A DNA stretch of 62,096 bases, filler included, from Vermamoeba vermiformis (taxonomy: Eukaryota), in assembly GCA_045837725.1 (NCBI GenBank). It is 3 parts of 3 records of this genome, joined end to end, with 100 filler letters (N's around TTAATTAATTAA, not from the genome) between each part and the next. Parts side by side here need not be neighbours in the genome. Positions count along the whole stretch, not along the records: positions 31,553 to 43,257 come from JBEWZL010000112.1; positions 43,358 to 62,096 come from JBEWZL010000117.1; 1 more part is not named here. One strand, given 5' to 3'. The translations under genes and the position numbers were made by a program. Below, piece after piece: positions 32,895 to 55,615 of this stretch. Every line of letters begins with the position of its first letter. Within the stretch, counting starts at the first letter, position 1. The notes beneath the pieces are model-generated. The model was not told where the DNA came from and did no database searches. It saw only the letters and a list, made by a program, of their open reading frames with translations.

Positions 32895-33294
32895 AAAATG
32901 CGATCTTATACGTACTTTGTAATTCAATGGAATTTTTAGGTTTTTGTCAGGACAAGTGCCGGTCAAATTGAACGGATACGTCTCTTTGTGTTGAAGCAGA
33001 TCTGACAGAAATTGCGCTGCTGTGCAAGATAACTATCGAAAATATTTAAAAATGGATATTAAATAGTAGTATGAATTATGTTGAGGCTTACCAGGCGAAA
33101 TTTTGGAGCGAAAGCCGAGATCTTGCTCGACAAAATTATCCGAAGCAAGATATGACTATATTTGGATGCAAAACGCATTATCTTGTCGATTAAGCTGTCT
33201 TTTTCAATTGTTACAGGCTTTGAATCAACTACTAACTTGTTTTCAAGTGATCGAATGCTGATCCACAAAAAGCTTTGAAAATCATTGTTGATGA

Positions 33295-33331
33295 ATCGAA
33301 AAGTATTGTAAAAACGCATTTGAGTAAATTT
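33295..33331 (+). repeat. Left terminal inverted repeat
   Basis: ATCGAAAAGTATTGTAAAAACGCATTTGAGTAAATTT. Confidence 0.9.
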
Positions 33332-33353
33332 CGCACTTTTATAAGACAACTGG

Positions 33354-36300
33354 TTATTTTTTCCTTCTTTTCTGTTCATACTCTGCCCATTCCTGGTTTT
33401 TGCTTTGGTCAGCATCAATGAAGCAATTTCGTGGTTCCCACGATTGCTCTCCATTTTCCCACAGAACCAACCATTCTAATCTGTTTCCATTCTTCCTATG
33501 GTCAACTACTCTTTTGACAATCCATTCCTCTTGGTCTTGAAAAGAATTAGTATTGGTTCAAATAGTTGCCAACAGCATACCCTGAGTGAAATCTCGTTTG
33601 CGCTTTTTGGTTAACACTTCTACCTCTGGTTTTGAGCTAGTACTAATTATTGGGGCAGGCACTTCTGGTTTCACTTGCCCAATGGAGAACATTGCTTCAG
33701 AACTTTGAATCGGTTCGTATTGTGCCAGAGCTTCAAAATATTCAATTGCCTAAACTAGCCTTAAGAAACGGTTTCAAAGTTGAAAGCTTACTTGTTTTGA
33801 CAAGAATTTCTGAGCCTTGCTAACAATAGTTTGAATCAAATCGGCAGAAGGGCAAGTGGGTTGTATCACAGAAGGCTGACCAGATGGAGCTGCGCTGAAA
33901 AGTTCATCTTTAACTTCTGTCCATTCATTATCCAGTGACTGTTTCTTATACAAAAGAGAAGGAGTGTTGTCAAGTCCAGGTTTGATCCAAAATGCATACT
34001 TGTCCTTATGTCCACTTATTGACTGTGAAAAGCCAAGAAACCATTTCTTCCATGAATATACTGGCCATTGTAATTCACGAATGAGAATGTCTTTTGGATA
34101 GATGGCTCTGGCAAATTCCACTGCTTGGTCCATAGTTTCTATAACTTTCCATCGAAAGTAAGTGTGGAATAACTGAAACAATCTATCAATGTCTTCATGG
34201 GTATGTCCAGGTTGAAGGTAGTGAATGAATATTTCATCGAACCAGTTATGGTGCACTAAAGCTGCTGCAAACTGTAGCAGATACTGGTTCTTTCCTTCTG
34301 CGGCACTGTTATCTACTTGCAAGTAAAGAGTTCTTGGTCTCTTGCCTGGGTCTAGAGTGAGAAGTGACTCTTTTAGGTGATGGAAAAGCAGTGAAATGTA
34401 AAAGTCTGAATCTGCTACATAATCTGTTTCCTTGAAAAACACCAATTCTCTCTTGTTCAGACCATGGTTGATGAAGCCAACAAAACTGACAGGTAGGAAA
34501 GTTACATTTGTCCATTCTTTTGGCATTGGATGAAAATGAGGCAACCAAAATGAGCCACTTTTGTCCGTAATGACACTCATCTTGAGGTGAGGCTGCTTGA
34601 TAGCAATATCTGTTCGAACTCGATAACCTTGTCTATCTCTGGTAATATAGGCTATATGATCTTGCATTTGTTGCTTAAGAGCTGAAAGAGTTTTTTCACA
34701 CAGACCAGATTGAAGTCGCTTCTGTTTAATTAATAGGCATGTTGAGCACTTTCCCAGTCTGGTTTCTTTCGGTCTTTTAACATTCTAAATTGATAATTAG
34801 TATTAATAGGATTCAAGTTAATGTACCTTAAATTGCTTGTGCCTCACTTGCTTGAATGTCTCAAAACTGGGAATATCTTCAGTTGGCCGTTGCAGTTTGC
34901 ACTCTTCTGCAAAAAGTTTGTACCACTCTTTGTTTCTGAAGCTAGCAATTACAACCATATTCTATTTTATACACAAACTTACGTTAAATGAGATGGTAAG
35001 TGAATTTCATCCTTTGTAGGAACATAGTCTCCATAGGTTTCACAATAAGCTGAAATCCATGCTGCAACAGAGTCTCTCTTTGGAGTATCATATACTCGAA
35101 AGTAATTACCATGTAGAGTTGCAGTACTGCCATTAAGGTGCATTTGCTTGCAGTGAATCACTTTCTGAACGGCTACACCATAGATCCGACAGAAAGCCAA
35201 CTGACAAACTGACATTCCATTGATCAAAAACACAACTGAAGGATCTGATATATTCATGTTGGTTCCCATAAATTTCAATAGCCAAGTTGTTTTTTCACTT
35301 TCATTCATGTCAGCTACCATTTTGCGACATTTGAGAATCTGTTGATACGTAAACAATGAAGTGCACCTTGCATTACAACAGCTATCTTGTTGAACTGGTG
35401 TAAACAAGTTAGAGGTGTTTTTTTAGAAGCGAAAACATACCCTTTGTTATTGACTGTTCACTCACTAGTTTGTCTTTCTTTGCATGTTGGGCTTTCTGAG
35501 AGGGAACTTTCACGGCTGTGAGCTCTCTGAAAAATGAGCGAGAGATGAGTGGCTCCTCTTCAGCTTTTGATATAATGGATTGAAACAATGCAATTCCATT
35601 AACTTCTTTCTTAGTTGCCAGGTCCTATTTAGATTGTCAATACTGGAATACAGACAAATGTCAACAGACCTGCTGCTTAATGTACACCAAATGATCAATG
35701 TATTGTTTGTTTTTGCTAACATTGATATCTTCATTCACTCGATAGGCTATACCATTGTTTTGCATCCCATCATAAAAGTATGTGGTGTTGTTGTTAAGAA
35801 AGTAACACGTGGTGTGCACCCCATCACACATCAAAGCACTTAGTAGACTATATGAGCTATCTCCAAAGTGGAGAGTTGGTTCAATTTGTAAATTAATATT
35901 GGTGAACTGTCTCTTATATCTGCCCAACTCCACTGTGAGAACGGTTGGAAGGTGCATTGTTCCTAACACATTTGTAAGAATATATCTTTGACATCACTGG
36001 AGTTTCTTACGATGTTCCACTGCAAATTCTCCACAAAATTCACACGGCATAGGCATTTTTTGGCAATAGTCTATCAAATGGTGAATTGAAGCCTGAACGG
36101 AGAGTGTACTGTCAGAAAGTTTCTCAGCAACATAAACAGTTGGGTTGTTGAATTGTTTGATAGTTAAGGGGCAGCGGCAATTTGATCTGTGCTCTTCAGA
36201 AGTGCAAAAAAGGGTTGCTTCAGCTGTGGGCAAGGTTTTGATAGCAGCAGACAGTATTGCTCCAATAGAAACGTATGATTGGCACGGAGTCCATCCAGCT

Positions 36301-36564
36301 ACTGGTCCAAGAGCTTCAATTAAATCAACTTTCAATTGATGTAATGCTGAGCTTGATAATGGTGCAAATTGAATCCAGGTTGCAAGCAAGCGAAAGAAAT
36401 TACTAGTCAGCTGCAAATCAGGAATACACTGCAGTGTTAGGCGAAGCACCAGGGCAACAGTTTCAATAGTGCACAGATCTTTCATTCCTAGTTTCTAGGT
36501 TAGTACTACTAATGAGGAAGCTCACCAAGTCCTACCAGCTGAGCCCCACAGGAATCCTTGAAAT
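33354..36564 (-). CDS. USP(C19)-like peptidase + Sola1-like DDD transposase + chromodomain fusion (spliced; true start upstream of 36564 not found)
   Basis: Exons splice in frame across introns including 35963-36010, 35625-35669, 35395-35440, 33750-33791 and 33536-33580. Transposase motifs: VCQLAFCRIYGV, RPKETRLGKCSTC, VITDK, LYLQVDNSAAEGKNQY, QPGHTHEDIDRLF. The last exon (33354-33535) reads EEWIVKRVVDHRKNGNRLEWLVLWENGEQSWEP. Confidence 0.85.
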
Positions 36565-37655: not shown

Positions 37656-39114
37656 ATGGCTAATAACCCAGAAAACTCTATTATTGAAGTACCAACAACC
37701 CCCTGAAGATGCAAGCCCTCCCGAGCAAAAGACTGAAACTGATTCCTCAGATCTGAATCCATCTCGGAAGTCATTAGGTATGAGATATTACCTTTAATAA
37801 TTAGGATATAATAGTAAAATAATATACATTAGCTTAATGTAAGCTTAATTTCATTTTTCAATAGCTGACAATTCTGCCGATGATTCAAATCTAGCTCGAT
37901 CCAAAGAAAAAAGCTCAGATCAACTCCTCAATACTATAGGTAATAAATAATTACACTACTATCTAAAATATAATATTATAATGCATTATTATAGAAGATA
38001 AAGCCATTAGCTTGGACGGCCAAGAAAAGCCTGTCGCCGATCCAGTTTCATCCGAACAAGACAAGAGTAAGTCCTACTGTTTGTACACTTCTACAATAGT
38101 TAACTCTCACTGCAGAGGACATCACTGAGTACTTCATTTACTTCGGAGAGCCTTGGGAAAAGAAGTGTTATTATAAAGTGACTCGAAGAGTGGACAACTT
38201 CTGCATCGAGGCAGGAGACTTGGTTGCCTTGAAATCAAATGCTGGGCTCCACACTGTCCTTCTCATTAAGAGAAACAAACAATACAACAAAGTCCTTCTT
38301 GCCGACCCAACTCTAGCAAAGGTCATCGAGGTCAAGTTCAGCGAGGTCCTGACAATCCACGGCAAAACAAGCTCTGGGCAACAGCCCCAACTGGACATAT
38401 TATTCAAGGAGTACATCAGTGCAAAGGTAACCTAGCTATCTATCAAGATAAAAGCTTATTCACCTTGTAGAAAAAAAAGTTATCTCCGGCAAAGTCCAAA
38501 TTAAAGCCCAAAGAAATGCATCCAAAGAGTGCAACTCGTACCCAACCACCTCGTTCTTCTCGTTCTCCTCCTGTGAAGAGTGTGCCAGTAATCAAAAAAG
38601 GTATAATCAAAAACATCAGTAGTATTGTCTAATAACCTTGAACTTAGAGCTAAAGCAAGCAATCCCTCAGGCACTGCGTCGAAGAAAGGAGCGCAAGCCA
38701 GCTCCAAAGATATTACCTGACTCCTCATCCTCTGACTCGGAGAGCTCTGTTAGTGTCAAGCCAAAGCCAAAGCAACAAAAGAAAGTGATGGAGGCTCCAA
38801 AGCTCAAGCCAGAGACGCTGCTCAAACCAACCCAACCATTGATTGATAGTGCTCTTCAAAATGCACCGTCTCTTTCTAATCAAGATTGTTCTCCAAATCC
38901 GATTGCTTTGGAACCTGCCACGCACAATGTCACTCAACTGTTCAACGTACCATTCCAGCTTCAAAAACTACTAGAGCTTCAACAAGTGCACCATCGGCAT
39001 GCAATGGCACAACAACAGGCTAATTTCATGTTGTTGTTACAACAGCAACAGCAAGCTGAGTCTCAAGAGGCATTCAGTGCAGTAGTGCAAACCTTCTCGA
39101 AATTAAATAATTAG
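37656..39114 (+). CDS. Transposon-borne multi-exon protein: acidic N-terminus, possible BAH/SH3-like barrel, basic linker, Q-rich tail (5' end uncertain, possible frameshift)
   Basis: Short GT-AG introns link exons up to YYKVTRRVDNFCIEAGDLVALKS... and ORF 38638-39114. The ATG at 37656 runs into a stop after a C5 run. Confidence 0.55.
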
Positions 39115-39226: not shown

Positions 39227-39233
39227 TATAAAA
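39227..39233 (+). promoter_or_regulatory. Candidate TATA box of the NEIL1-like gene
   Basis: GGGTATAAAAGG about 60 nt upstream of the ATG at 39289. Confidence 0.5.
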
Positions 39234-39288
39234 GGAGAATTCTTAGCAAACTGTCATTTTTAAATTGATTCTAAAGACAACACAACAA

Positions 39289-40332
39289 ATGCCAGAATAC
39301 CTTGAAAACAAGCTAGATGCAAGTGCCATCAATGCCAAAGCAAAGGGCCACAAGTTCAACTCAATCTCCACTGGTCCATACAAAGTACCTACTTCTTCAG
39401 AGCCCCTACCTACCATGAATGGACAGTATACTCTCTCTGCCTCTGCCATTGGAAAGTGGCTTATTATCAAGCTGCGGCAAAAACGTCAACTTAAGCACAC
39501 TCTCTACATCTCTCTCAGCATGAAAGGACAAGTTGTGTTTCTTACCCCTGAACAGTATGAAGCTGAAAGCAAATTTGTGGCTATTGCTTTCCATCGTGCA
39601 GATGGCTTGGTCATTGGACTCTTCCACAAGCCCAGCAACCACATTGTTATATATGTGGATTACAAGCCTGACACTCTTTCACATGACTTCTTCCTTGAAC
39701 CATCAGCATTCAAAAAGCACCTGCAACAGAAGTTGAAAGCTACCCGCAAGAACCTGGCTACTACTCCTCTCTGTGTATTGATGCTGGATCAAGACTTCTT
39801 TCCTGGAGTTGGAAACTATCTGCGTGCTGAAACTCTCCATAAGGCAAACATTCCACCTTTCACTCCTGCTAGCCTCCTGAACGAACCTCAGTTTTTGCAA
39901 ACTCTGTTGGATGCTCTACATGCAATTGTGATGGAATTCATTGCCAAGTTACCAGATCACTACAACATGCAAGATGCTCAAATGAAAACTTGGTTTGAGA
40001 ATGATTTCCTGAAGGTGTATGGCAAACAAGACTCCCAACGTGCCTTTGACTCCAGTGGAAAGAAGATTTGGTGGAAAGGACCAGGGGGACAGCTTCCCTA
40101 TGTACCAACAGAAGATGTATCCAAAGAATCTGTTGGTCCTTATAGTGGATGGGCAATGGAGCTGGAACAAACTGAAATTACTCACCAGGACAAGCAAGCT
40201 CTTCACTATGCAGTGCGCAAAGGAAAGCGTGGACGACCTAGAGTGATACGCAACTCTATTGGAAGACCAAGCCTGGGCCGCCCTCAATACAATAATAGAA
40301 GAGCAAAGCAAAAGTTTATGTACCGTAAATAA
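39289..40332 (+). CDS. Intronless NEIL1-like (Fpg/Nei) DNA glycosylase/AP lyase with C-terminal AT-hook
   Basis: N-terminal MPE, YTLSASAIGKWL, SMKG, H2TH motif LDQDFFPGVGNYLRAETLHKANIPPF, zincless finger LKVYG...DSSGKKIWWKGPGG and KRGRPR. Confidence 0.9.
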   Translation: MPEYLENKLDASAINAKAKGHKFNSISTGPYKVPTSSEPLPTMNGQYTLSASAIGKWLIIKLRQKRQLKHTLYISLSMKGQVVFLTPEQYEAESKFVAIAFHRADGLVIGLFHKPSNHIVIYVDYKPDTLSHDFFLEPSAFKKHLQQKLKATRKNLATTPLCVLMLDQDFFPGVGNYLRAETLHKANIPPFTPASLLNEPQFLQTLLDALHAIVMEFIAKLPDHYNMQDAQMKTWFENDFLKVYGKQDSQRAFDSSGKKIWWKGPGGQLPYVPTEDVSKESVGPYSGWAMELEQTEITHQDKQALHYAVRKGKRGRPRVIRNSIGRPSLGRPQYNNRRAKQKFMYRK

Positions 40333-40335
40333 ACT

Positions 40336-40372
40336 AAATGTACCCAAATGCACTTTTACAATACCTTTCGAT
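40336..40372 (-). repeat. Right terminal inverted repeat
   Basis: Reverse complement ATCGAAAGGTATTGTAAAAGTGCATTTGGGTACATTT matches the left TIR at 32/37. Confidence 0.9.
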
Positions 40373-41495
40373 ATGAACTTCCACTCCGCCGTACTATCTT
40401 TCTCCAGATTTTCATATGCCTAAGTAAATTTAGCACATATCAAGCGCTTTTAATAAAGTTTCAGTTTCGATCTGCGGATTGACTTACTTTAACAAAATAA
40501 TCGAATACAGAAACTGCGTTACATTCAACCATGTCTTCGAAATTAATCTCGGGATCGGCAGATTTTTTTACTCGTACAAAAGGGTTTGGTGTCTTTGCAA
40601 AAATATCAGGCCCAAAGCACGCATGTAAATACGTAACATCGTCGAACGCGAATGCACGCTATCAATGCTATTAATACCAGATATAATAATAATGCTCATA
40701 ATATTACTTTTTTGAGGCTTTTCTTGAACCAGTATTCGAGATCTTGTTTGAGTGTGTGATCTTGTTTTCGGAGTCTTCAATAATTTATTAGCTAATTAAA
40801 TAATTATTAATGGCGAAATAAATGCAAGATTCTTACGGTTGTATGGTAAATTGATACATTTGTAACTCCATTTTCAAATCAATCATAAAATAAAGCTTCT
40901 TGCATGATCGAGCAAGCGTTGATTTGCTCAATATACCACTATTAATTATAATAATTTTAATAAGCTCATTGGGAAGGCCAATAAGAGTTGACGACGGCTG
41001 TTCCGATGGCGGATTTGATGCATCACGTTTGAGTTGCTTCTTTTTAGCAACTTCTTTTGCATCAAACTGCTTGAACTTCGAGGAAAGGCTCGGTGTCGTG
41101 TTTTTGTTGCGCTTCATTTGATTTAAATGATAACTGAACTATCAGCCACAATTGTTGCGTTCCAGAAAAAACAAGAAGCCACGAAGGGGACGCGTAACGG
41201 GGTGCGTATAAATTAATATGATTGGTGCGTGTCCAAGAACGTGATGGTGTAACTTTTATTTATTAGGCAATTAACCGGCTAAATAACGGTAACAAAAGGA
41301 ATTATAAATACAACAAAAAATTGGATAAATATGAATAAATAATAGAATAAATATGTCAACAGGTTTGTCACAGATCAGTTAGATTTACTCGACTACTGAT
41401 CAACAGGCCTTTGATATTTTATTATAAAGTGGATGACTTTCACGTTGTCCAGACCAAATCGCTTGGTTTTATTACGATTCTTGCTTTAGTGAAAA

Positions 41496-43120
41496 CTACT
41501 GCAAATATGACATATCAAAGTTGATCTCGTAAATGTCATATCTATTTATCGCGAGGGCTTTGGTGTCATTAATGATGAAAATATCTACTAGCTCTTTGTT
41601 GATGTAACCAATGATCGCTCGTTTGCTGATCGAAAAGAAAATTCGACGAGGATTACCATTGCGGTAAGTTCGACACGTTAAAATGTCTCTATTTAACCAA
41701 CAACATTGTGCGCACATTTTTTCTGGCAAGCTTATCGAGAGGTAGGGGTCATGCAAGTGCTCAATATTGTCTGGTACAGTGTTTGCATCGTTTATGCGAG
41801 TAGTTGACAATTCATGAACAGTGAATACTCCAGATTCTGAGAAAAAAGTCGGTAAAATTCGGTTAAGTTGCAGTCTTACTTGGTAATGTGCAGTAATATG
41901 GTGAACCCGGGAATACAACAAGATCGTTCCAAGCTTTGAAATAGTCGTTCACATCTTTAGTCGGCTGTTGCTGGTAGGATTGGCGGTGAATAATTTTCCG
42001 CGAATTGACATCTAATATTTCTATTTCTAGTGCCACGCCTGGGTACCGAAATATCTTCAAGTAGGACCCATTTTCATTCTCAAATAGCTGCATCCCGCAA
42101 TTGAAATGTTCTTTTTGTTTTTCATTAAGCTGCCCGTTGTAAAGGTCAATAATTTTCAGATTAATGCAATCGATCTCGAATATTGAGTAAGTTGCATTCA
42201 CTAGGTCGTGACTAATGGCGTATGTGACAGGTCTTAACGTTGATGAGATGTAGTCACAAGGAACCGACAACTCGAATGTAGCTACGTCGTTCCCTGTTGT
42301 TATCGATCGGAAATTTAACTTCGCAGAATTATTCTCTTCGTAAGCAATTCCAATCCAAATATCACCTAAAAAAAAGGTAAGTATTACAAGCAAGAGCAGA
42401 ATTACGTTGGCGTTTACCATATATAAGGGATTGATCTCCTGGTTGCGTGCTTAGGCACGTGACATCTCGTTCATGAACCAAAACGTCACCTTCAACGCGG
42501 AAAAATTTCATGGTACTTTCCTCCGTAAGCAATCCGATCGTCTGATCTATTAGTATGCGGCTTATATTAGAAAGTCATGAGAATAATGCAAAGTACTTGC
42601 CAGTTATGTTAAAAAACGGCTCGTACAAGGTAGGCATCGGTAGTGTTGCTGTTATAATCGCTGTTGTTGCGTTGTACACAAGTAAATCTTTGTCTAAATA
42701 TAAAATTAAATCTTTTCTCCATGGAACTTGATAGCTGCTCGGCAGTGCGTTGTGTGGATTCGGTTTTCCATTTGTCAAAGTGAAGTAGGAGACTGAATGT
42801 CCTTCGTCCACGAGCGAATCTATCACAATGAGGCGTCGGAATTGTTGGTTCATATCTTCTTTTAATACGAGGGTGTATGACAGTGGGAATGCCGACTGGA
42901 TGCGTTTAATCCAGGCGAAGCTAAACCGATCAGACAACCACGAATTGAACTTTTTGCATACTGTACGCAATATAAATATTCTCTTGATAGACAGAAAAAT
43001 AGTTACGTTGAGAAACGCGTCTTTGCTGGAGAATAAAGCATTTTCAGATCTGCTCGAAAAATAAGATCTTAACTTAGTGGTAGTAATTAAAATCCTCAAT
43101 TTTACTTACATGTCTTCCAT
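41496..43120 (-). CDS. F-box-like protein with beta-rich C-terminal region
   Basis: FSSKDAFLNVTIFLSIKRIFILRTVCKKFNSW is F-box-like. Three ORFs are joined by introns, with an ATG micro-exon at 43120. Confidence 0.65.
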
Positions 43121-43257
43121 AAATCGTGTTGAATCGCTAATTTGTCAGCACCTGAATGGTGCGCTCTGTCGAGGTGTCAGAAAAAAATGAGAAACAAATT
43201 AATAACTGTAGATTTTAGATAATAGTACATAAGATATACAACAACGATATGTATGAG

Positions 43258-43357
43258 NNNNNNNNNNNNNNNNNNNNNNNNNNNNNNNNNNNNNNNNNNN
43301 NTTAATTAATTAANNNNNNNNNNNNNNNNNNNNNNNNNNNNNNNNNNNNNNNNNNNN
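43258..43357. other. Artificial contig linker (N44-TTAATTAATTAA-N44)
   Basis: Same 100-nt cassette as 31453-31552. Confidence 0.97.
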
Positions 43358-43699
43358 TGAAAGTTAATACAAGTGCAGTTGAAACAAAATTCTTCAAGAT
43401 TGAAGTTGAATTCATATGAGCACTGCATGCCACTCTTCATATTGAGGTGAAGCTCAGGAGGCACATCAACTGTTATGTCATCAATATTTTTTAACCTGTA
43501 ATGAAGTAAACTTAGGATCTGCAGTCACTATCAGTTAGGTGAACAGGCATTGATCTCTATCATCTTAAAAGTTACCACACGTGATTCAGTCCCATCATAC
43601 AGTCCCAAGAGTGCATATTCCCTGACTTTAGGCCCAAGAATGGGGTCAAGAATGGTGACTACTGTGTTTACTTTCATGTCAAACTTACAGATGGCAGTT

Positions 43700-43900
43700 C
43701 AGTATGTACTCAACTTTCCTTAACTTAGTATCTTCAATCCTTTCTTAGTGTTTGATTGAATTGCTCAATTTGACCATTTGTCTGAAGGTGCCTAGGAGCT
43801 GACTTGATCTTCTTGTACCCAATTGCTCTCTTAGCTTCTGACATTGCATGTGAATTGATAAGTTGTTGATGCTGCTTTGCTCTAGTGATAAGCAATTCTC
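43700..43900 (-). pseudogene. Decayed retroviral-type (rve) integrase fragment
   Basis: Reverse translation AIGYKKIKSAPRHLQTNGQIEQFNQTLRK resembles the HPQxNGxxERxNRTL motif. Stops are nearby and the region is almost free of CpG. Confidence 0.65.
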
Positions 43901-44078
43901 ATTTGCTAATTAAAGCAAGCAATAGTATCATTTAATGCATCCTTCTTTGTAATCATATCTAATTGGATTGACTTTATATAGAATAGGGTTGGGGCTAGGC
44001 CCAACCTCAATAAACCACATGTTTTTAACAAATTAAATATTTATTTTAGGGTCCAACTGGACTACAAGCTTGCGTCTG

Positions 44079-44292
44079 GGTGCGAGCCACGCACTAAGAC
44101 AGCACACAAGACTTGGACGGTGCGAGCCACGCACCAGGAAAGTGTCCAAGACTTGGACGGTGCGAGCCATGCACCAAGACAGCACACAAGACTTGGACGG
44201 TGCGAGCACGCACCAGGAAAGTGTCCAAGACTTGGACGGTGCAAGCCATGCACCAAGACAGCACACAAGACTTGGACGGTGCGAGCACGCAC
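44079..44292. repeat. Tandem 39-40 bp hairpin repeat, 5 full units plus a partial, alternating A/B variants
   Basis: GGTGCGAGCCACGCAC-x-CAAGACTTGGAC units at 44079, 44119, 44159, 44199, 44238 and 44278. Confidence 0.93.
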
Positions 44293-44583
44293 TATTCTAC
44301 TTAAAAGGCTAGGGCTGGGATTATACGATGGGCATGAAACGCCCGGGATTGATGCGAAAACCATGCCCAAAAAATCGTGGCAAGAAAATGAAGCAAAATA
44401 GCCAAAAACGAACATGAGCATTATATATAGCCTTAGGAGTAGGCTGGTTTAGGTTTATAGGCTTTTGGCATTAAATGATACATTTTATATATATTTAGGG
44501 TTGCCCACCCTATGGGTTATGGGGTTGTTGGTGGCCCTTCAGGGGGTTTCTTGCGATTTGTGGGGTGTGACCTCCTTTCACCT

Positions 44584-45163
44584 GGAGGATGTTGTCCAAC
44601 AGGATGCGACCTCATTTTGATAGGAGGTTGTTGTCTGATGGGATGCGACCTGGTTTAGACAGAAGGTTGTTGTCCAATGGGATGCAACCTCGTTTTGATA
44701 GGAGGTTGTTGTCCGACGGGATACAACCTCGTTCGACAAGGCAGGTTGTTGTCCAGGAGGATGCAACCTCTTTCGGCAAGGCAGGTTGTTGTCCAGGAGG
44801 ATGCGACCTCATTTGACAAGGGAGGTTGTTGTCCAGTGGGATCCAACCTCATTCGAGAAGGGAGGTTGTTGTCCAGTGGGATGCGACCTCATTCGAGAAG
44901 GCAAATTGTTGCCCAACGGGATGCAACCTGGTTCAGACGGAAGGTTGTTGTCCAGTGGGATGCGACCTCGTTTTGATAGGAGGTTGTTGTCCGATGGGAT
45001 ACAACCTCGTTTCGATAGGAGGTTGTTGTCCGACAGGATGCAACCTGGTTTAGACAGAAGGTTGTTGTCCAACAGGATATGACCTTGTTTTGACAGGAGG
45101 TTGTTGTCGGAAGGGATGCTACCTAATTTGCATGTGAGGTTGTTGTCCAGGAGGATGTAATCT
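44584..45163. repeat. Tandem array of 15 imperfect palindromic 39-40 bp units
   Basis: Consensus GAGGTTGTTGTCC-N4-GGATGCRACCTC plus a ~10-bp variable linker. Confidence 0.93.
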
Positions 45164-45394
45164 ATATATTACACAGTTTGTATTATGAAAAATTTAGTTT
45201 ATTGGAGTTGTAGTGTTGAGCAATTTTTTTGAATTTTTTAGACAGTTTTCTTCTGAAAAATCGATTCATCTTCGAAATTGATTCTGTTTCACCATCATCC
45301 TCACTCTCCGTCTCATCTCCATCTGAATATTTGAGTTCGCTCAAGTGTCTGCACCGTTGAAATTATTTTACTGATTATTATTGCAACGGGAAAC

Positions 45395-46476
45395 TTACAA
45401 TTTGAGAACATGAGTAAGTGAGACAAAAATGTCAAACTGAAGGGGTTGCTGTTTCAACCAAGTCCAAAATATTGAATTGGTTTGAACAGTCTTTGAAGGC
45501 TGGCCAGAGTTTAACCAATTTGAAGGCAAGCTGGAGGGGAGAACACAGGTTGTGAAGCACTCAAACACTGTCAAGGGCGTACAAACCAACAAACAATGAA
45601 CTTTCTTGTTTTCGAATGTTGTCCGGTTGAAAACTTGAACATATCGCATGGCTGCTTGCTGCCATCCAGTGCAATAAAATTGAAGGTAGTCAAAGTCGTG
45701 TTCAACAAAATTGCAGAGCTGTCGCAAGTATTCAGTGCAAACACTAATTAACAGACTTTGATTTGCCTCAGTGCTTAAGAATTGGAAAGCATTTTGCCAT
45801 GGAGGTATACCTGGTTAATGTATCAGTAGTAGTAGAAGTAGTTTGCATTGAAGACAGCTTTTTTGTACCAAAGTAATGAGCCAAGCGCTGAAGAATTTCG
45901 TTTGTAATTAGCTCACCAAAGCCATTAAACAGTTCTGAGCACAGCAATTCAAACAAAGTTAAGTGTCTTCCAATATTGCCCACACGTGTAGCAAGTAGGT
46001 GGGTGAACAAACCATTTTCCATCCTAATATCTGGGCCCAGTTTATTGTTCCATTGTAATGCTGGCAGTACAGTAATTGCAGGCCCACTATGAGGAGTGCG
46101 TGGCAAGAAAATGAGGACTTGATCAACTCCGTCAAAGCTCATAATTGTAAAAGCCCATGAGTTAAAATTTTTTAATGCATTAACTTGGCAATAAATGACA
46201 ATATCTTCACTCGCTAGCTGAACTATAATTGCCGAGCCATCTGCCAAAATCAGTGCAAGCTGCTGTCCACGTGAGTAGATCTAGTTTACAATTATTAAAA
46301 TCAAGTGCGTGACTTCTATCAATTAAACCTACCAATTCTACCCGTAAGTAATACGTCTCTCTTTGTAGTAAAGTTGTAACTTTGCCGTTACTGCTGTAAA
46401 GTCGAACCAAGATCCTTCGAAGAATGCGCGCTGACAGCCAACGTTGCAAGCACTTATAGTCCACGTATTCGGCCAC
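45395..46476 (-). CDS. Degenerate NEIL1/Fpg-like protein, probably catalytically inactive (intron-containing; ends uncertain)
   Basis: AEYVDY aligns with MPEYLE, and DGSAIIVQL with IGKWLIIKL. Also KLGPDI, LFELLCSELFNGFGELITNEILQRL (H2TH) and YVQVFNR. Confidence 0.6.
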
Positions 46477-47315
46477 TAAATATATTTAATTAGTACGTTG
46501 AGCAGAGGCAGAGATCAGCGCATTTTGGATGCGCTACGATTTATAAACTTAATTAACCTATTGCATTAATAATAACGCTATTGCTCACTTACATGTTAGT
46601 AAAAATCCTCGATGCAGTGGCGTATTGTACTCCCAGCAAGGAATATTACCAAGATCACGTTCGCCGTGATCGGTGGTTGCTCGCCCAACGAGGGCAAGGA
46701 GTGTCGCCGTCGAAGCAACAATTTATTAAATATTTACTTACTCATAAAAGCGCGTTGTGAACGAATTGTGCACTCCTGTTTCAGATTGCTAAAATAGTAA
46801 GTCCGGTAACATTCCGTTTATTCGCAATTGTTGTAATAATTGTTATATTTTTAATTAGTAACCACCAGTGCCATATGTTTTGTGTAAGTTCTACCACGGG
46901 CTCGATGGTCCGTTGATAATGCAACTTCGTTTGGTTGCACGAATCTCGCTGAGTCCGCTGACTCGGCGAGCTTCATTTTCTAACAAGGAGTGCGTTAGCT
47001 CCATTTTCTTTATGGCGAATCGCCGTACTAATTTCTTTTTGAAGATGGGCGAATCCTGTCTTCAATTGAATTTAGTCACGAATTAATGGTAAATAATTGG
47101 CAGTTTATGCTGCTACGTTACCTTGAATTTATTGCTGCCGTGTTATTATTTATTTGGGCTTACAGGCCTAAAGAAATTTTGATCTCGAGATCTTGAAATT
47201 TTATTTATTTATTTTACCAAACAGAATTCCTTAGGCATACAATATATTATTTACAAATACACAAATAATAATAATATTGTTTATAATTAAATTCCAGCTG
47301 ACTTGGTTTTTCAGA

Positions 47316-48692
47316 TGACTTCGGTACTACAAGCGTTATCGTTGAAGTCAAAAGTCGATATCTACTTGGACTTTCTTGTGAAGGCTCGAAACAGAATATG
47401 GTTCGAAACAGACTTTCCGGATACCTTAGTGCGACAGATTCAACAGCATCCTGAATGGGTCACACGCGAGGATTTCGTCTTTTACTTCGTGTTTTTCGCA
47501 TATCATAAAATGCTACCGCCGTTGGATTTGGCGAAGCTGTATTATCCTACGTGGTACTTCACGTACCGCAATCAGATCGCTGCAACGCTCTCTTTGGACG
47601 TCAATAGCCAGCAATGGGCTGACTTCAACACCATCTTCAACACCTTTCCGTACCGTTTACAATCCGCGATGCAAATGTGCGCCGTGCGAGCTGCCAGTCA
47701 TCCCGCAATCGGAGGAGCTCAAGTTCAAACGCAATTTTATTTACTTTGGTGCGCTCTTCGCTTCAAAATGTCTTATTGGCAATCCGATAACACTCTGCGC
47801 GTGCTATTGGACGAGTTAGAAAAAGAAGACGCGAAATGCAACTACGATTCGCCGTTGTTCACGCTGGATCACAAAAACTGCTTAGCGCCACCACTTCAAG
47901 GTATGCCCACAATACTAATGAAAATACTAACCAACTATCAAGGTGTCCAACTCCCCAATTATTCTGTGTCTAAATCGCAGCAAAAGAAGAACAAGAAGAA
48001 AACGCCGAGTAACATCTATTACGAGCGTGTTGGCTTCGTACAAGAATGCAACAGATTAGGTTATCGTTGGTTTCATCCGCCAGAATTTAACAGAGCAAGG
48101 GCGATATACGAGATTGCTGAAAAAAAACGAAAGTTGGATGCCGATTCGACAAAAACTTCTGGCACTCCAAAACGTAGAAAGGTTAGTACCACTACTTTAT
48201 GATTTAAACGTCGGTTTTAATAAATTTAGTTGGAAGGCACAGAGTGCTATTCTAGCAATCAAGAAAACTACGCGCCGTTCGAGCAAATCGAGCACGATGC
48301 AGAAGTTGAAGCATTTTCTCACAGCCCTGTCTACCAGCCAATGTACGAGATGCCTGTAAGTATTATTAGTAACTTATTATCGAAGCAATTTACTGATACG
48401 GGTCCAGGATTCACCAAACGTGCCCCTCTCTCCCCCATCCGAACCAGAGACAGCGATTGCTTCCCCACCCCACCGTAACACCGAAAATGAGTCGTTAATC
48501 GACGCAGCATTTAAAGCTGTTACGGTTATTGAAGTCAGTGCGGCAGACACTCGCAAGATGCTTGAAGAGAACGCGTCTTACTTGGCAGCAGCAACCAGCG
48601 ACTTATTATGGTGCGTTGGACCGGGAGAAGGAGTAAGATTGCAAGAGATACTAATGCAAACATTGGCGTGGGTAGGTAACGAATTGTATTGA
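47316..48692 (+). CDS. Unknown-domain protein (paralog 1); may be spliced to the downstream LRR-like exons
   Basis: Long open exon 47316-48180 with downstream splice sites. Motifs are shared with the gene at 59364-60093. Confidence 0.65.
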
Positions 48693-48983
48693 CAACAGTG
48701 CTGATCCTTTCTCAGTACAGAGATCGAGCGAAGTTTGAGTTTTGCTGGACCCCCGAACTAGAGACTCGCGTTGCTAACCTTACAGAGGACCAGGCACACG
48801 CAACTTTGCTGAAAGAATATATAGTAAGTTCTCAATTCTCAAGGATTTGTTTTGTATCGTGATTAACTCTCTATCCTTCCAGCGGTCAACGGTGGGGCTT
48901 GAACTACTAACGACACTTCGCCTCTATGTAAGTTAGTAATTGCTACCGTGGGCGACTAATAAGTGTAGCCAAAATCAGGAAGG

Positions 48984-50529
48984 TTGAAGGCCTATTTGAC
49001 CGGCAAAAGAATATATGACACGTGCAACCCGCTACCCTTCGTGCGCGGAATTTGGGCAACCCCAAGTGTTTGCTGGCTTATCATCATATGGGAGCTATTG
49101 GAGATACCCTCTGCGATAGTAACCTTTGCTCAGACTTGCAAACAGGCGCTCCAGATCGTCTGTGCTTGCTTCTCCGTTTGTCCTTCTTGGCAGCGCTTCA
49201 AAATCTTCGCTAAGTTTGCTTCGGTCGGCATCAAACTCAAACTTATGGAACACAAGCATATACTTGGGCACCACTTCATTGCTGATAATCTACATTCATT
49301 TCGTGATGGCGCAAGCCCGTATTCCCAACTGCGCGAGCTGCATTTCCACCACGTTACTCTCATGCCCGACGACATTTCCGAGATTATAAGGTGTTGCACT
49401 ACTATCAAGTCTTTGGCGTTTCATGGTGCAACACTAATTCCCGAGTCACAAGCAAAGCTGAAGCAGATGTGAGTAAATCTGATAAGATCAATATCGGTAA
49501 TTAACTAATTGACCGTCGTTAGGCTATCACAAATACGATCACTTCAAATTACGGATCCTAACACTGTCTATGCAAGAGATAGGGTAAATATCTCCCAAAA
49601 TCTCCTGCCGATCTGCTTTCCAAATCTGGCTGCTCTCTCGCTCCGAAATATGACCATGGCTACACAAACGTACAACATGCCCTGCAATTTGTCTACAAAG
49701 CTTCTTTTCTTAGACTTGCGTACAAAGGGCTTTGTAAACAATTTCTACGGGTTTTTGAAGATTCGAAATCCATCCACCACCGACGTTCTCCAGGAACTCT
49801 ACAAGCTCTTTCCCAATATTCGTGGCTTACGCTTGCCATTGGCTGATCGCCCTACGAGAGAGAGAGGTGTAGTTAAGATATTTTTTCCTCCACCACCTGC
49901 GTCTTTGGAGTACTTGGAGCTGCACGGCTACGCGGATCCGGTTGGTGTGGAACTAGACCTTTGGCAAGTCAATATGGGGCAACGATTGCACTACCTAAGC
50001 TTCGTCGATATATTCATTCGCCTAACGCCCAGACCAACGCATCTCATCCCGAGTTACGGAGACGACGATAATTTAACGCGAAAATATTGGTCGCTATATG
50101 TTGGGGGTAGCACTCACCAACTAAACAGGCGGATATTCGAAGCAATAGTCAAGCAGAGACCGTAAGAACTCAATTGCAATTAGTAAAAATTTGTTAACGT
50201 CTAATTTTAGATTCTCGTGGAAATACAAAGAAGGGGTAGAGCCGCGTCTTATAGGGCCTCCTGCATCGTTTTCGCAACTGTTCGATGTAGCACAAAAGAT
50301 TGCCGTGAACTCCTCACCAGATTTAGAACGGAAGGTGCTTATAGAGAGAATTTCGCACGAACGCTGCTTCATGCCCGATATTCCGGATTTCAGGATAGCT
50401 TCAGATGCCGTCAAGACAGAATATAGGTGGCTGATGAAGGTGGCTCCCGGTGCGTTTGTTGTTGAGCAGGATAAATTCGAAAGTAAGAAACAATGGTTCG
50501 ATTGTTTTGTAACGGACTATCGCTCATAA
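48984..50529 (+). CDS. F-box/LRR-like exons (gene probably extends to the acidic exon ending ~51384)
   Basis: FAQTCKQ, QLRELHFHHV, IKSLAFHG, FPNLAALSL, FPNIRGLRL and SLEYLELHG. Confidence 0.55.
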
Positions 50530-51604
50530 ACTTGATATAAATAGGCCAATCATGTTGCGGCCGGCTTTTTTCGTCGTTTGTTCGTTTTTTTTCGTTTCGG
50601 CCACTTTTCTTCATTGTTACATTTTTTGGATACAAGCCAAGGCCACAAAAGTAAGTATCGTAAATACACAGCACAAGGGCCGTTGTCCTTGATGGTTGAG
50701 CTCGATTGTTCAATCAATTAGAGTACTTATTTCCGCGAAGGAAAAGGTACGCATCCGTCTGAGCTTTAATTAACTATTTAACGCCGTAGTGGACGTACTA
50801 AAGAAAGTAAAGAAGCTGGCAGCCAAGCGCAAGCGCGATTCTGGTCACGTGTCTCGCGGCAGTACACCATCATCCCACCGATCCACGAAACGAAGAAAAC
50901 TTTCTCTCTCACCTCGCGGTTTCATACCCTTACGCAAGCACAAAGTGAGCGGTAGTCCAAAGCTTAGTACGGTAAGATTAAAAGTTTCAAATCGGAGATT
51001 TTGGCGCGCTTTACTTAACTCCAATTTTAGGACTCGTCCACGGATGCGGTCGACCTACCTACCTCGCACAAGGGAGAAGACCACTCTGTGGAGGCTGACA
51101 GCGATCCACCTCCTGTCCGTTCAATACCTCCACGCCAAGCGAAAGTCTCGCGATATCTTGCCTACGGCGAGTCTTCATCCGGTCTCTCTAGCCCACTGTC
51201 TTCTGCTCCTAGTGATATGGATGAAGAGGAAGAGCTTGCTGAGTCTGATGATTTAGACTCCCCGGAGCTTGCTCGCAAGGACTGGGATGATCTACGAAAC
51301 CAAGATCAAGATCAGCCGACCCGCTCGGATGAGGAATTTGTGGAGCCTGACAACATTGGTAACGATGAAGAAGCTTTTTTTTAGGGTTAGGGTTATATTC
51401 TCCATCCGGATGAATCACCCTAAAAACCTTCTCCAGTTTTACTATTACAATGCGCATGAGTTCTCTAATAATGCGCATGAGTTCGCTTAATTAGTACAAA
51501 ATTGTACCAAGAGTATGTTGAAAAATAAAGTTTATTTTACAGTTACAGTACGTTGTACATGAAATTTCTATGTCAATTCCCATTATATGGGATTTGATTC
51601 AACT

Positions 51605-52070
51605 CATTCGCATGTAGACATCAGCATGAGGACATTCGCATGAAGACATCAGCATGAGAACATTCGCATGCTTCATCCGAATGACTGACACTAATGGGGC
51701 ATGCGCATGTAAATTAAACATGCGAATGTATTTACTATCATGCGAATGCAGTAACGGACTGTCTGCCATGCGAATGTACTCGCTGCCATGCGAGTGTGAT
51801 CACTTGACTGTCATGCAAATGTACTCGCTGTCATGCGAATGCAATCACTTGACTGTCATGCGAATGTACTTGACTGTAATGCTGTCATGCGAATGTACTT
51901 GGCTGTCATGCGAATGTACTTGACTGTCATGCGAATGCAGTAACGGACTGTCTGCCATGCGAATGTACTCGCTGCCATGCGAATGCGATCACTTGACTGT
52001 CATGCGAATGTACCCGCTGCCATGGTGATCACTTGACTGTCATGCGAATGTAATCACTGTCATGCGGAGT
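51605..52070. repeat. Bidirectional array of the decamer CATGCGAATG
   Basis: Three reverse copies (51605, 51632, 51661), a central CATGCGCATG palindrome near 51700, then about 15 forward copies or variants from 51719 to 52061 at mostly 20-29 bp spacing. Confidence 0.92.
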
Positions 52071-52575
52071 GACACGTGTCAAATATCTCACCTTTGCGCG
52101 GTGGCACATTCAAATACTCGTCGCTCAGTCGGCAGCGGAATTAACGCGGAACTTTGGTCTGGTGGTGTCAATCGGCTGTTCTCCAGTCTCGCTCTCCTGT
52201 GCCGTGCTGTCCTCACTCGTGCTATTATTAGCCTCAGTGGCACTCTCCGTCTCTTTCTTCACCACGCGCTTGGGTCGCATGATGAGTGCGCGCGTGCGAC
52301 TCTGCACCAGGGCACATTTCTCCGCAATCTCCGCACTCGAGATGACGGGTCAAGTACTCGCTGTGCTCGCTCAGCTACGTGCTGCTGTCACTGCGAGTGT
52401 ACTGTGGCCACCACGAGTAGAAATCGTTGCTCGTGCGCATGTGAAGCACCACCAAATAAACTAGAAAAAACAAGTAAATAAGAGTTTGAAGTAAATACAT
52501 ACATAATATTTATTAATTGTTTTTGTTTTTTTTTTGAATTTGATATTAAATATATATAAAATACTCGTGGACAAA

Positions 52576-55483
52576 TTACATCGTCTTTTGTCTCTTCTCC
52601 TCTCGCTCTTGTTCGAGAAGTTTTGCCAAGGAGAACGTAGTAATCTTTCTCTTCTTCTCGGGGTTGGCAGCGGCGGGTGCATTGTTAGACGGAGTACTAC
52701 CATCGTTGTTGACCATGACAGGAACAGGCTTGTTGTACGAAACCTTCGGAACAGGCACCGGTGTAGGTGATGGCATCACTGGCACAGGCAAGGGGACTTT
52801 TTGCTCTCGTTGTCCTAGTATGACCTTTGGACGACAGTACTTGACGACGGTGTTGGGCTTAGGTTTGCTTGGTTTCGGAGTCTTGCGAGCACTCTCGATG
52901 GACGTAGTTCTCCGGCTACAGTCACCGTACACAAGCTTACGGGATGGCCCTGGCTTCAAGTTCGTGTTTGCGCCAGTTCGCATGTTGGTGTTTGCGTCGG
53001 TTTTCAGGTTGGTATTTGTGCTTGTGTCCTTGTTCGTTTCCCATTCAGGTGGAGCATTCAAATCCAAAGGAGGCGTTGAGGGTGCGTTCGAATCCTCAGC
53101 AACAATCGAGTTGATCGTATGGGTAGGAGAGTCAGACGAAGAAAGTGAACTGTGAGCAGCGTGGTAAGAATCAGACTCAAGAGCATCATCAGAATCAGAG
53201 ACGATATGAGAAGATTCGATGGACTCGCACTCGGCATCACTCTCGTCGCTGTCCTCGCTGGCCTCACTTTCTTCGCTTTCTTCGCTTTCTTCGCTTTCTT
53301 CACTCTCGTCATCACTTCGGTCCTCGTCGCTCTTGTCGTCATCACCGGAATTAGCGCCAGAACCTCCTGATTCGCCTCCCGAGCTGGATCCATCAGCAGA
53401 GTCGCGTGAGCTTTCATCATGGCTCTCCTTCGAATCAGATGAAAAACCAGAAGACAGCTCCATAGAGCTGCTGTCAAGGCTGGACTTTTTTGTCGAGTAG
53501 CAACCTCCGATTGTAGCCCAGTACGTGTTGACGAGTGACATGAACGCAAGTAGCTTGGGCCCAGGCAAAGTTTGCTTGGTGCCATCTTTGAACAAGACTT
53601 CGAAGCAAACGGACTGTCTCTTGCCAACGAACTTGTGACCAACGATTCGGTCAATACTGTCTGCAAAGTCGTCATGAGTCTTGTCGTAGCGCTTCTCAAA
53701 CTTGTTGATGACGCTCGCCATGGCCTCGGAAGGAGCTATTCCAACCGTCTCGTTGACCTCCTTCAGCGTCTTTTCGTTGACACCAGCACGTTGAACTCTG
53801 TCGTAGTGCGTGCTCATAACGGCAGGTGAAGTATTGATCAGTGCTGCGTGCTTCTCGCTGAAAAACTTCGAGATGTCGTTGTTCAAGTGATGTTCGGTCA
53901 GAAAAGAGACCAGCGCACGACGGAAATAAGCGCAGCTGATCGCTCTTCCTGGGAAGTAACTCGCAACGACATTGCTCACCACCTTCGAGAGTGTAGTGAA
54001 GTCTAAACGAGCGAAGGTTAGCGACAAGATGAGTTTGAAACAATTACTTACTAGGTGCGTTACCGTCTCGATTGACCCACATGGACTCAACTCCTTCGTT
54101 ACGAACCAGAGGCAAGTAGTGCTCGAACCAAATTCGCAACGGTACTGCAAACGCTGCAGGCAGCAAGAAGAAATCTGTCTTGGCTCGCTTGACTTTTTCC
54201 GGTGGTGGGAAGAACTTGACAGTGTTTCCCTCGAAGACAATGTTCTAATTAAATAATTAGTAAAGTATTGATTAACGGAGCCGATTTGTAGTTCGTACCG
54301 ACACCGTCATTGAAGCCGTGAACTGTCGTCGTTGTCCTCCAAGATACATCATTCCAAGGACGAACAAGTTGCCCATGAAGTTGAACATTCCTTGTCGCGA
54401 CAAAGCTGAACTTTGTCGCTCTTTCGTCAAGAACTTGTCATCCAAGTTGATGTAATACACCAACTTGTCACAGATGTACGCGTTCAACTGCCGTAGCTCG
54501 TCTTGATGAAGCCACTGCCCAAGTAACATCAGGTTCTCAATCACCATTTTATTCGCGTTAGCCTTGGCTTCGTCTTTCGCTTCTGCAGGTCAAAATAGTA
54601 TCAGAATCGTAATCGTACAGAATATGTTCGCAACTTACTTGCACAAGGAGCACGCAGCAAGTCCTCCACTGCATCAATCCGTGCCCTGTAATTGGCAAAC
54701 TCTTCGAGACCCTATTACAGAATTAGATTACACCCCATGACCACAAGTAGTTACTTACGTGAAGATACTTCAAGAACATTCGAATAATCTTCAGGCAATT
54801 TGCAATCGTGCTTGCAGACTTGCCCGTGGATTCGTACCACCGCGGAAAAGCGGCCGCCACGCGAACGTCCAGTAGATGACGAAGGTCTACTACGACTGGT
54901 TTCACTTCTGTATCGACAAAACGAAAGAAGATGCCAAGCATAGAACGAGTTTCGGCGCCGCGATCAGAGCCTGTGTTGGACAAGTGCTTCTCTTTCACCT
55001 TGAGTTCGTCTGCGGCAGAGGATTTTTTCCTGGTCTTGCGCTCACGTTTGATGTAAGTATCGAACAACTTCGGTACCTTGAAGTACTTGACCGAGACTTG
55101 ATCAAGCGAGAGAGCATTAATTCGTAGCGGCTTTCCTGTTCTTGAATCCCCTATTAATAAAGTTAACAAACTTAACCACCGGGACTAATTAGTCTTAAAC
55201 TTACTTTCGGCAACAGCAAACTCCTTAGTTGCTAAGTCTTCAGGTACATCTTCCATATCAACGACTACAGGAGCGTCGCTATATTGAAGCAAAGCCTTTT
55301 TGACGTTACTGAGCTCAGTGCGAAGCCTTTTAATCTCCGGCGAATCTGCTTAGACTGTAAGACTCGGTTACAGAATTACTGAAAGGCTTACCATTCATTG
55401 TCGCTGTAGACTCTTTTTTCTGATCCGCGTCCTACAAATTGTCAACAAAAATTTTTAAAATTCTGTTGTGTTACCTTCTCCAT
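52576..55483 (-). CDS. Intron-containing tyrosine recombinase with chromodomain-like module and acidic/Ser-rich tail
   Basis: SAM-like KSASTIANCLKIIRMFLKYL. Catalytic region: GGQRRQ (R), PPEKVKR (K; in a spliced frame absent from the ORF track), MWVNRDGNAP, AYFRRA (R) and LINTSPAVMSTHYDR (Y). Followed by IDRIVGHKFVGKRQSVCFEVLFKDG...LVNTYW. Confidence 0.82.
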
Positions 55484-55615
55484 GATTGCGAAAGATAAAG
55501 ATTGAAAAAACGCCTACGAAAAAAAAAATTGTTAACCACGTGACTTTTGACGAACTAAAATTTATAAGTCCAAATATAGTACGTTCTGAAAATAAAATTA
55601 AGTAATCTCACAAGC

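Follow-up and report, generated by a model that had tools for sequence, protein, structure and literature searches.

Does the genome of Vermamoeba vermiformis hold a clade of NEIL1-like DNA glycosylases that is specific to mobile elements and shared between element classes? An earlier note raised this question for a 62,096-nucleotide stretch of assembly GCA_045837725.1 (hereafter the window), in which it placed one such gene with a transposase and another near a tyrosine recombinase. The window consists of three contigs (1-31452, 31553-43257 and 43358-62096; contigs 1, 2 and 3), and, as that note had recognized, they are joined artificially, by runs of N with a TTAATTAATTAA linker at 31453-31552 and 43258-43357. 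We show that contig 2 contains a complete cut-and-paste-type DNA transposon with three conserved genes, which encode a DUF7869 protein, an accessory protein (ORFx) and a NEIL1-like glycosylase. Our preferred reading, to which we assign a probability of roughly 0.7, is that this transposon carries its own, likely active glycosylase, and that the contig-3 gene is a separate, catalytically altered relative at the family level with no demonstrable link to the recombinase.

The contig-2 transposon is delimited on both sides by terminal inverted repeats (TIRs) and a target-site duplication (TSD). Its features, including open reading frames (ORFs), are as follows.

33291..33294, no strand: left TSD, ATGA, read directly as ...TTGATGA/ATCGAAAAG, with the same four bases after the right end
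33295..33331, plus strand: left TIR, 37 nucleotides (nt), 32 of 37 bases complementary to 40336-40372
33774..35422, minus strand: presumed transposase gene, multi-exon, comprising the DUF7869 ORF at 33774-34784 and an N-terminal ORF at 34979-35422
35661..36494, minus strand: two same-frame ORFs split by one TGA, inside the element and upstream of the transposase ORFs
38100..39114, plus strand: ORFx, a conserved accessory gene with a beta-rich domain at 38100-38435 followed, at 38623-39114, by a linker rich in basic residues and Ser and by a Q-rich helix
39289..40332, plus strand: NEIL1-like (Fpg/Nei) glycosylase gene, intact and intronless, 347 amino acids, starting MPEYLENKL and ending in a tail with RGRP and GRP motifs
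40336..40372, minus strand: right TIR, 37 nt, starting 3 nt past the glycosylase stop codon
40373..40376, no strand: right TSD, ATGA, read directly as ...CTTTCGAT/ATGAACTT

Thus, the 7,078-bp element spans 33295-40372; each of its TIRs is 37 nt long, and the flanking duplication is the 4-bp ATGA. A pattern derived from its termini has two sites in the window, which are the two element ends, against 0.00 expected by chance. The window contains no second copy of the element or of its TIR, and tblastx and blastn comparisons of the element with contigs 1 and 3 returned no similarity.

Related copies define the same right boundary; the two in which similarity stops exactly there have 63-67% protein identity. 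A metagenome scan with A1, an alignment of the contig-2 protein and four close homologues (67-70% identity), returned four loci (L001-L004) that encode clade members with 63-69% protein identity. The similarity between L001 and the window extends from approximately 37558 to exactly 40372, and there is none over the remaining 1.16 kb of L001. The similarity of L004 stops at the same right terminus, and its end also matches the left TIR of the window at 87%. At the right end, the window element, L001 and L004 can be aligned as far as ...CGAT/TGAT/CAAT, after which their flanks differ; four aligned termini have ...TTTTACAATACCTTTCGAT in common and diverge immediately beyond it. Nucleotide identity of the window to L001 and L004 is only ~68-70%. 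Coinciding termini with flanks that diverge at once are the signature of separate insertions by a single transposon family that has the glycosylase among its internal genes; this comparison applies to the right end of the element, since L001-L004 cover just its right part. Furthermore, the Logan contigs that encode proteins P0001 and P0002 have lengths of 7139 and 7167 bp, near that of the element, and may be whole-element contigs.

The glycosylase encoded beside the right TIR is a NEIL1 homologue that is most likely active. Pfam recognizes the Fapy_DNA_glyco N-terminal domain in the ORF (expectation value, E, 1.2e-5; 26.3 bits, above the 25.5 cut-off), and the best solved relatives of the A1 profile in the PDB are NEIL1 chains (E ~1e-12), with an alignment that runs through the zincless finger; the finger region corresponds to NEIL1 residues 255-287. 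The description of this gene as an intact NEIL1-like gene was therefore well founded. Pro2, Glu3, the Lys and the G-x-G-N-Y motif are conserved in all five clade members, as is the start MPEY[LI]ENKL. The catalytic Lys (AIGKWL) lies in a column where 79 of 80 aligned proteins have K, and the H2TH motif is present as GVGNYLRAE. Since Pro2-Glu3, the catalytic Lys and H2TH are all kept, the protein is most likely an active bifunctional glycosylase/apurinic-apyrimidinic lyase, which the element presumably produces to its own advantage.

Selection has maintained the glycosylase within the element. The corresponding ORFs of L001 and L002 contain no stops, and nonsynonymous (dN) and synonymous (dS) divergences are 0.21-0.25 and 1.6-3.2, respectively. 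The resulting dN/dS of ~0.07-0.15 is only rough because dS is saturated, but the gene is clearly constrained and under purifying selection, and is therefore a true transposon gene. Of 1.84 billion representatives scanned with HMMER, 998 were found at E<=1e-3, 65 at <=1e-10 and 2 at <=1e-30. The clade is thus small and isolated, as only two representatives reach the last level. Given the verified TIR ends around the gene, its unchanged position in independent copies and the purifying selection on it, we conclude that the clade of this enzyme is truly transposon-borne.

The tail of the contig-2 glycosylase connects it to a wider subfamily. We take its RGRP and GRP motifs to be AT-hook-like. Four further proteins (P0005, P0008, P0055 and P0096) have VGPWxGW and two GRP hooks downstream of the zincless finger, and members of this subfamily often have Lys instead of the finger Arg. 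The contig-2 protein resembles NEIL1 (1TDH, 5ITX) in its N-terminal Pro-Glu, its GK lysine, its H2TH sequence G-x-G-N-Y-L-R-A-E and a finger that is zincless rather than Cys4. Unlike NEIL1, it is transposon-encoded and has a VGPYSGW motif and the RGRP/GRP tail; it also lacks the GMSG and RRFG-type motifs of most NEIL1-like relatives. Another NEIL1-like glycosylase of a selfish or viral genome, Mimivirus Nei L720 (PDB 4MB7), is matched by the contig-2 profile at E 1.7e-7; there, however, the carrier is a giant virus and the AT-hook tail is missing.

The DUF7869 protein is presumed to be a DDE/D transposase. Pfam assigns DUF7869 to the ORF at 33774-34784 (minus strand) with E 4.7e-39, and short introns of the form GTAAGT...TACTAAT...TTTAG separate the transposase ORFs; with these canonical introns removed, the presumed transposase stays open. 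Its position within the TIRs and an acidic-residue pattern read by eye (D...DN...GHTHEDID) are consistent with the DDD transposase described previously, but the family has no assigned function, a PDB sequence search gave no relative and a full-text literature search gave no mention of DUF7869. The two ORFs at 35661-36494 (minus strand) are Cys/His-rich (…CEFCGEF…) and have no Pfam match; they may belong to the transposase gene as its N-terminal part or be a fourth gene that has decayed.

ORFx is under clear constraint. Its protein identity is 58-69% in L001-L003, and its dN and dS against L001 are 0.28 and 2.2. It has no Pfam match, and the PDB gives chance matches only. An AlphaFold model of its domain from four sequences reached a predicted local distance difference test (pLDDT) score of 43.0, and a model of exon 2 of the contig-3 gene alone reached 36.4; these are too poor, so neither model was used for a fold search. 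ORFx may be what had been called a chromodomain on this contig. Pfam, searched up to E 10, has no Chromo match for ORFx (38100-38435), for the transposase C-terminus (33777-33977) or for a segment of contig 3 discussed below (53482-53679), and PDB searches agree for the two contig-2 proteins; a chromodomain on contig 2 is not confirmed.

Why would a transposon encode a DNA glycosylase? The AT hooks, perhaps together with ORFx, might bring the enzyme to the AT-rich DNA of the element. There it could excise modified or damaged bases and so protect the element from silencing or mutation, which is the function we favor by analogy with transposons that carry TET/JBP genes. The glycosylase would then be the base-excision counterpart of the TET/JBP dioxygenases of fungal DNA transposons. 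Alternatively, the enzyme could work on the DNA ends and gaps of transposition, processing or repairing them in the manner of the accessory nucleases of Kolobok lineages.

Known transposons with accessory enzymes provide partial parallels. TET/JBP genes occur on many fungal DNA-transposon lineages, and an escape from methylation-based silencing has been proposed for them, according to Kojima 2025 (PMC12730594). Like the contig-2 element, these are cut-and-paste transposons with a conserved accessory enzyme of a base-modifying or repair pathway, found there in several unrelated lineages. Unlike it, they encode a dioxygenase and not a glycosylase; in that paper the word glycosylase appears once, for the host TDG, and the transposase families named (KDZ, hAT, Harbinger, IS3EU, EnSpm, Plavaka and Helitron) are not shown to include DUF7869. 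The fungal enzymes are also present in several element lineages, as the earlier note proposed for the glycosylase, and such sharing between element classes is not supported here. Accessory genes for DnaQ exonucleases, PD-(D/E)xK nucleases, His-Me finger nucleases, RecQ helicases and KolX are listed in the part consulted of a 2022 study in Mobile DNA (PMC9587614). By that account, Kolobok elements share with the contig-2 element TIRs, a second DNA-processing protein and a 4-bp TSD; their TSD, however, is TTAA-specific as opposed to the ATGA found here, and that part of the study mentions no glycosylase.

A transposon-borne glycosylase of this kind appears to be unreported: a full-text literature search, which was not exhaustive, gave no report of an Fpg/Nei glycosylase carried by a transposon. 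Transposons with accessory nucleases, helicases and TET/JBP dioxygenases are already known, and the Fpg/Nei cargo is what appears to be new. The firm result here is the transposon family with its conserved NEIL1-like gene. Conservation and apparent activity make the enzyme a concrete, testable case of a mobile element that brings base-excision chemistry to its own DNA, whether its purpose is to undo silencing marks or to aid transposition. The element also gives DUF7869 a function-linked context and defines an AT-hook NEIL1-like subfamily.

The second NEIL1-like gene, on contig 3, is an open, intron-containing gene. Our model of it is as follows.

45395..46589, minus strand: NEIL1-like gene, proposed four-exon model from profile match and splicing, 323 amino acids, start MAEYVD, stop TAA
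46589, minus strand: A of the proposed start codon, followed by a putative intron 0 at 46588-46476 (113 nt)
46475-46333, minus strand: exon 1
46332-46281, minus strand: intron 1, 52 nt, GTAGGT...AG, which joins the upstream AEYVD frame
46280-45869, minus strand: exon 2
45868-45811, minus strand: intron 2, 58 nt, GT...CTGAT...AG, between profile-aligned parts
45810-45395, minus strand: exon 3, ending in TAA

We built a profile from 79 full-length NEIL1-like representatives and the contig-2 protein and used it to score the 1139 window ORFs of at least 30 amino acids with the HMMER filters off. Two contig-3 ORFs, 45771-46280 (minus strand, E 0.011) and 45398-45814 (minus strand, E 0.75), ranked second and third, behind the contig-2 gene itself. 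They lie end to end on the profile, at positions 119-180 and then 181-244, and were ranked before any splicing choice. The spliced protein scores 27.0-27.4 bits (E 1.4-1.9e-7), and the best of 2000 shuffles scores 8.1 bits; a version with a V start aligns over profile positions 17-243 of 320. Random five-sequence NEIL1-like profiles all gave it positive scores (60/60, 5.4-34.4 bits). A language-model search with the 170-amino-acid ORF of exon 2 placed it nearest to H2TH/Fapy clusters (0.86), and nine of the ten best family-bearing matches agree; this counts as a lead only. Because the spliced profile match is significant, the shuffles reach at most 8.1 bits and the introns are canonical, the gene is a real NEIL1-like homologue.

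As the contig-3 gene shows, apparent frameshifts in this genome are short introns. Introns 1 and 2 are well supported by frame and collinearity. Upstream, AEYVD is encoded at 46473-46459 (minus strand), a TACTAAT...TTTAG acceptor lies directly before TG-GCC-GAA, and a GTGAGC donor is found 113 nt further upstream. With intron 0 removed and the ATG split across it, the mRNA would read ATG GCC GAA TAC, or MAEY, in register with the MPEY of contig 2. The gene had been called degenerate; it is NEIL1-like as claimed (27.4 bits, E 1.4e-7), but it is not frameshifted, with GT-AG introns and 323 open codons. It is no frameshifted relic: the 52- and 58-nt GT-AG introns join open frames.

The contig-3 protein is probably not an active member of the family. 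It matches the same family profile as NEIL1, but Pro2, the Lys and two H2TH residues (Asn and Tyr) are lost: Glu3 is kept and Pro2 is replaced by Ala, while Q, E and L stand at columns that are K in 79/80, N in 80/80 and Y in 79/80 family members. Canonical catalysis by this protein thus seems unlikely, and the gene adds a candidate pseudo-glycosylase to the family. Its single ORFs (45395-46485, minus strand) gave no Pfam match and no homologue. Word-index searches with exon 2 produced 33 near-length and 350 longer candidates with common words, none of which scored, and phmmer against the PDB returned only an alanyl-tRNA synthetase (E 1.9). Three RNA runs with the same species label had 0, 1 and 0 reads on 45250-51400, which is no test of expression or introns.

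The DNA around the contig-3 gene also occurs in other datasets. A 205-nt contig from a run labeled with a different organism (X3) is identical to 46755-46959, with 0 differences; this stretch is intergenic, upstream of the NEIL-like gene, and has no Rfam family or tRNA. Approximately a tenth of the words sampled from 45300-47200 are present in two soil-metagenome runs.

Several observations weigh against the preferred reading of a transposon with its own glycosylase and a separate, altered gene on contig 3. Outside the window, no copy that has two ends and a transposase turned up; L001-L004 cover only the right part of the element. The 4-bp TSD is weak evidence alone because there is only one insertion, and such a match would arise by chance in ~1 of 256 cases for a fixed boundary. 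DUF7869 is formally a domain of unknown function, and we infer the transposase nature of the protein. The Pfam H2TH match of the contig-2 ORF (9.9e-8, 32.3 bits) is slightly under the 34.7 cut-off, and the zincless-finger Arg column, which is R in 74 of 80 proteins, is K in the contig-2 protein, P0002 and P0003, with R in P0004. The profile alignment was in view when the contig-3 introns were picked, and a start codon is obtained only with a third intron that is unproven. The function of the glycosylase is a prediction.

A more elaborate account would join the two genes in one history. The transposon family would carry a base-excision module, in which the AT-hook NEIL1-like glycosylase acts with a small beta-barrel 'reader' protein to erase silencing or mutagenic modifications of bases in the DNA of the element, a glycosylase counterpart to transposons with TET genes, and the contig-3 gene would be an inactivated offshoot retained by the host as a binder of lesions or modified bases. 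We consider this account possible but unlikely.

The recombinase side of contig 3 offers another explanation, namely that the NEIL1-like gene there is cargo of a tyrosine-recombinase (Crypton-like) element, captured independently and not close kin of the contig-2 gene. Two features are relevant to it.

52576..55184, minus strand: multi-exon gene of a probable (Crypton-like) tyrosine recombinase whose C-terminal tail is acidic and Ser-rich
53482..53679, minus strand: segment that had been taken for a chromodomain (IDRIVGHKFVGKRQSVCFEVLFKDGTKQTL...), with no Chromo match

The ORFs at 52576-55184 probably encode a tyrosine recombinase. The SAM-like N-terminal domain Phage_int_SAM_1 is matched weakly by the ORF at 54723-55184 (Pfam E 0.049), and language-model neighbors lie in the integrase clan and include Phage_integrase (0.85), NDC10_II (0.84) and DUF3435 (0.84), all under the 0.9 threshold for a lead. 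With candidate canonical introns at 54298-54245 (54 nt) and 54051-54003 (49 nt), the joined exons read GGQRRQ ... EKVKRAKTD ... AYFRRA ... HAALINTSPAVMSTHY, in which R, K, YxxR, H and Y follow in order by eye. The gene has no match in the PDB or PHROGs, and Pfam gives no integrase, DUF3435 or NDC10_II match. The recombinase proposed previously is thus plausible, with a motif order that fits, but its database matches are weak or missing. The chromodomain said to be fused to it was not confirmed: in the PDB, 53482-53679 matches only the KDM4B Tudor domain, at a nonsignificant E of 0.72. A DUF7869 match on the recombinase ORF (E 0.068) was taken as chance. Cryptons are eukaryotic intron-containing DNA transposons with a tyrosine recombinase. 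Like them, the contig-3 recombinase gene contains introns, has no reverse transcriptase nearby and shows a readable R...K...xxR...H...Y order; it differs in having Tyr for the His of HxxR, and it can be called Crypton-like only tentatively.

The NEIL1-like gene has no demonstrable link to this recombinase-like gene. Both are on the same strand and 6.1 kb apart, minisatellite arrays lie immediately downstream of each (44048-45202, period ~39-40 nt; 51605-52066, period 45/21 nt), and the NEIL1-like gene was an orphan in two word-index searches, as is often the case for fast-evolving element genes. However, at least three ORFs intervene, one of them LRR/F-box-like (Pfam LRR E 0.0025, weak), and F-box-like ORFs (E 0.008-0.025) also occur outside the contig-2 TIRs. 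The two arrays are unrelated in sequence, a repeat search of the window found no direct or inverted repeat that brackets both genes and no boundary that joins them, and there is no second locus for comparison. We therefore regard independent capture by a Crypton-like element as improbable.

The clade that the earlier note proposed, in which a single EY-marked lineage of mobile-element glycosylases was exchanged by two kinds of element, one with a DDE-type transposase and one with a tyrosine recombinase, and decayed on contig 3, is quite improbable. The contig-2 and contig-3 proteins appear to be akin only at the family level. In both, Y follows the N-terminal x-E in register (MPEYLE and MAEYVD), so that this observation stands; the EY motif is nevertheless uncommon rather than unique. 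Y comes next in 9 of the 94 MPE-starting proteins among 153 collected, and six of these nine MPEY representatives are outside the contig-2 clade. If the contig-3 C-terminus is aligned by eye, the zincless finger of both proteins also reads K-K in place of the G-R-T of most relatives, but the clade member P0004 has R and not K. There is also a precedent, in PMC12730594, for enzyme genes that move between transposon superfamilies.

Direct comparisons of the two proteins argue against a shared clade. With tblastn and hhalign, no similarity was detected between them, and hhalign gave exon 2 a probability of 0.44% against A1. The contig-3 protein has 15-16% identity to the contig-2 clade versus up to 21% to other NEIL1-like proteins. 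A profile of the contig-2 clade only scores it at -0.3 bits (E 28), and its score rises to 29.6 bits with the general profile once that clade is removed. The profile of the AT-hook subfamily gives 15.2 bits, below 46 of the 60 random five-sequence profiles, and the contig-3 gene has no VGPWxGW and AT-hook tail. Nor does any boundary join the gene to the recombinase gene.

Trees place the contig-3 protein inconsistently. They were restricted to MPE-starting proteins of 230-450 amino acids (79 of 153), and the second tree used the first 48 of these by id. Under LG+G4 (81 rows), the contig-3 protein is attached beside the contig-2 clade with a support of 34 in the Shimodaira-Hasegawa-like approximate likelihood ratio test and a terminal branch of 3.25. 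Under LG+C20 (50 rows), this branch is gone and the protein stands next to P0030/P0044 with a support of 2; both lineages are long branches.

The contig-2 glycosylase could also be a passenger, that is, a host gene that was recently captured or simply lies in the element, with no role in transposition. DNA transposons do capture host gene fragments. Against this, its position and orientation relative to the right TIR are the same in the window, L001 and L004 at ~68-70% nucleotide identity, and its full-length ORFs are open with the low dN/dS given above. The gene is intronless, and just 3 nt separate its end from the TIR. Its closest relative outside the clade is at E 2.9e-32, so that there is no sign of a recent host donor. 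Thus, a mere passenger is very improbable.

Least probable of all is that chance produced the open frame of contig 3 and its spurious similarity, or that the gene there is a dead pseudogene, an idea fed by the third intron that its start codon requires, by single ORFs with no Pfam, PDB or homologue match, by the loss of family-invariant or near-invariant residues and by the AlphaFold pLDDT of 36, and countered by the profile match (E 1.4e-7, where the best shuffle has 8.1 bits), by positive scores with all 60 random small profiles, by 323 stop-free codons across three frames with canonical introns and branch-site-like motifs, and by the independent language-model agreement on H2TH/Fapy clusters.

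The GC content of the window is ~35-50%, and its genes have short GT-AG introns of ~40-115 nt. With donors like GTAAGT and branch sites like TACTAAT, these introns mark the DNA as eukaryotic and fungus-like. No known RNA was found when the entire window was scanned for Rfam families and tRNAs. ORFs resembling F-box and LRR/FBA proteins, with weak Pfam matches (E 0.0025-0.025), are located at 40833-43105 (minus strand) and 48969-50165 (plus strand). Such ORFs flank the contig-2 element beyond its TIRs and recur in the interval that separates the contig-3 genes; this points to a host gene family that has expanded.

On contig 1, translations reveal paralogous ORFs at 83-721 and 2125-2805 (both minus strand) that have long identical motifs in common, which suggests a tandem duplicate of an uncharacterized protein. 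Translation readings also indicate an NBR1/PB1-like ORF at 3976-4944 and an EF-1-alpha-like fragment at 10588-11091. At the far end of contig 3, a further minisatellite array (61475-61708, period 81 nt) lies within a long Pro/Ala/His-rich ORF.

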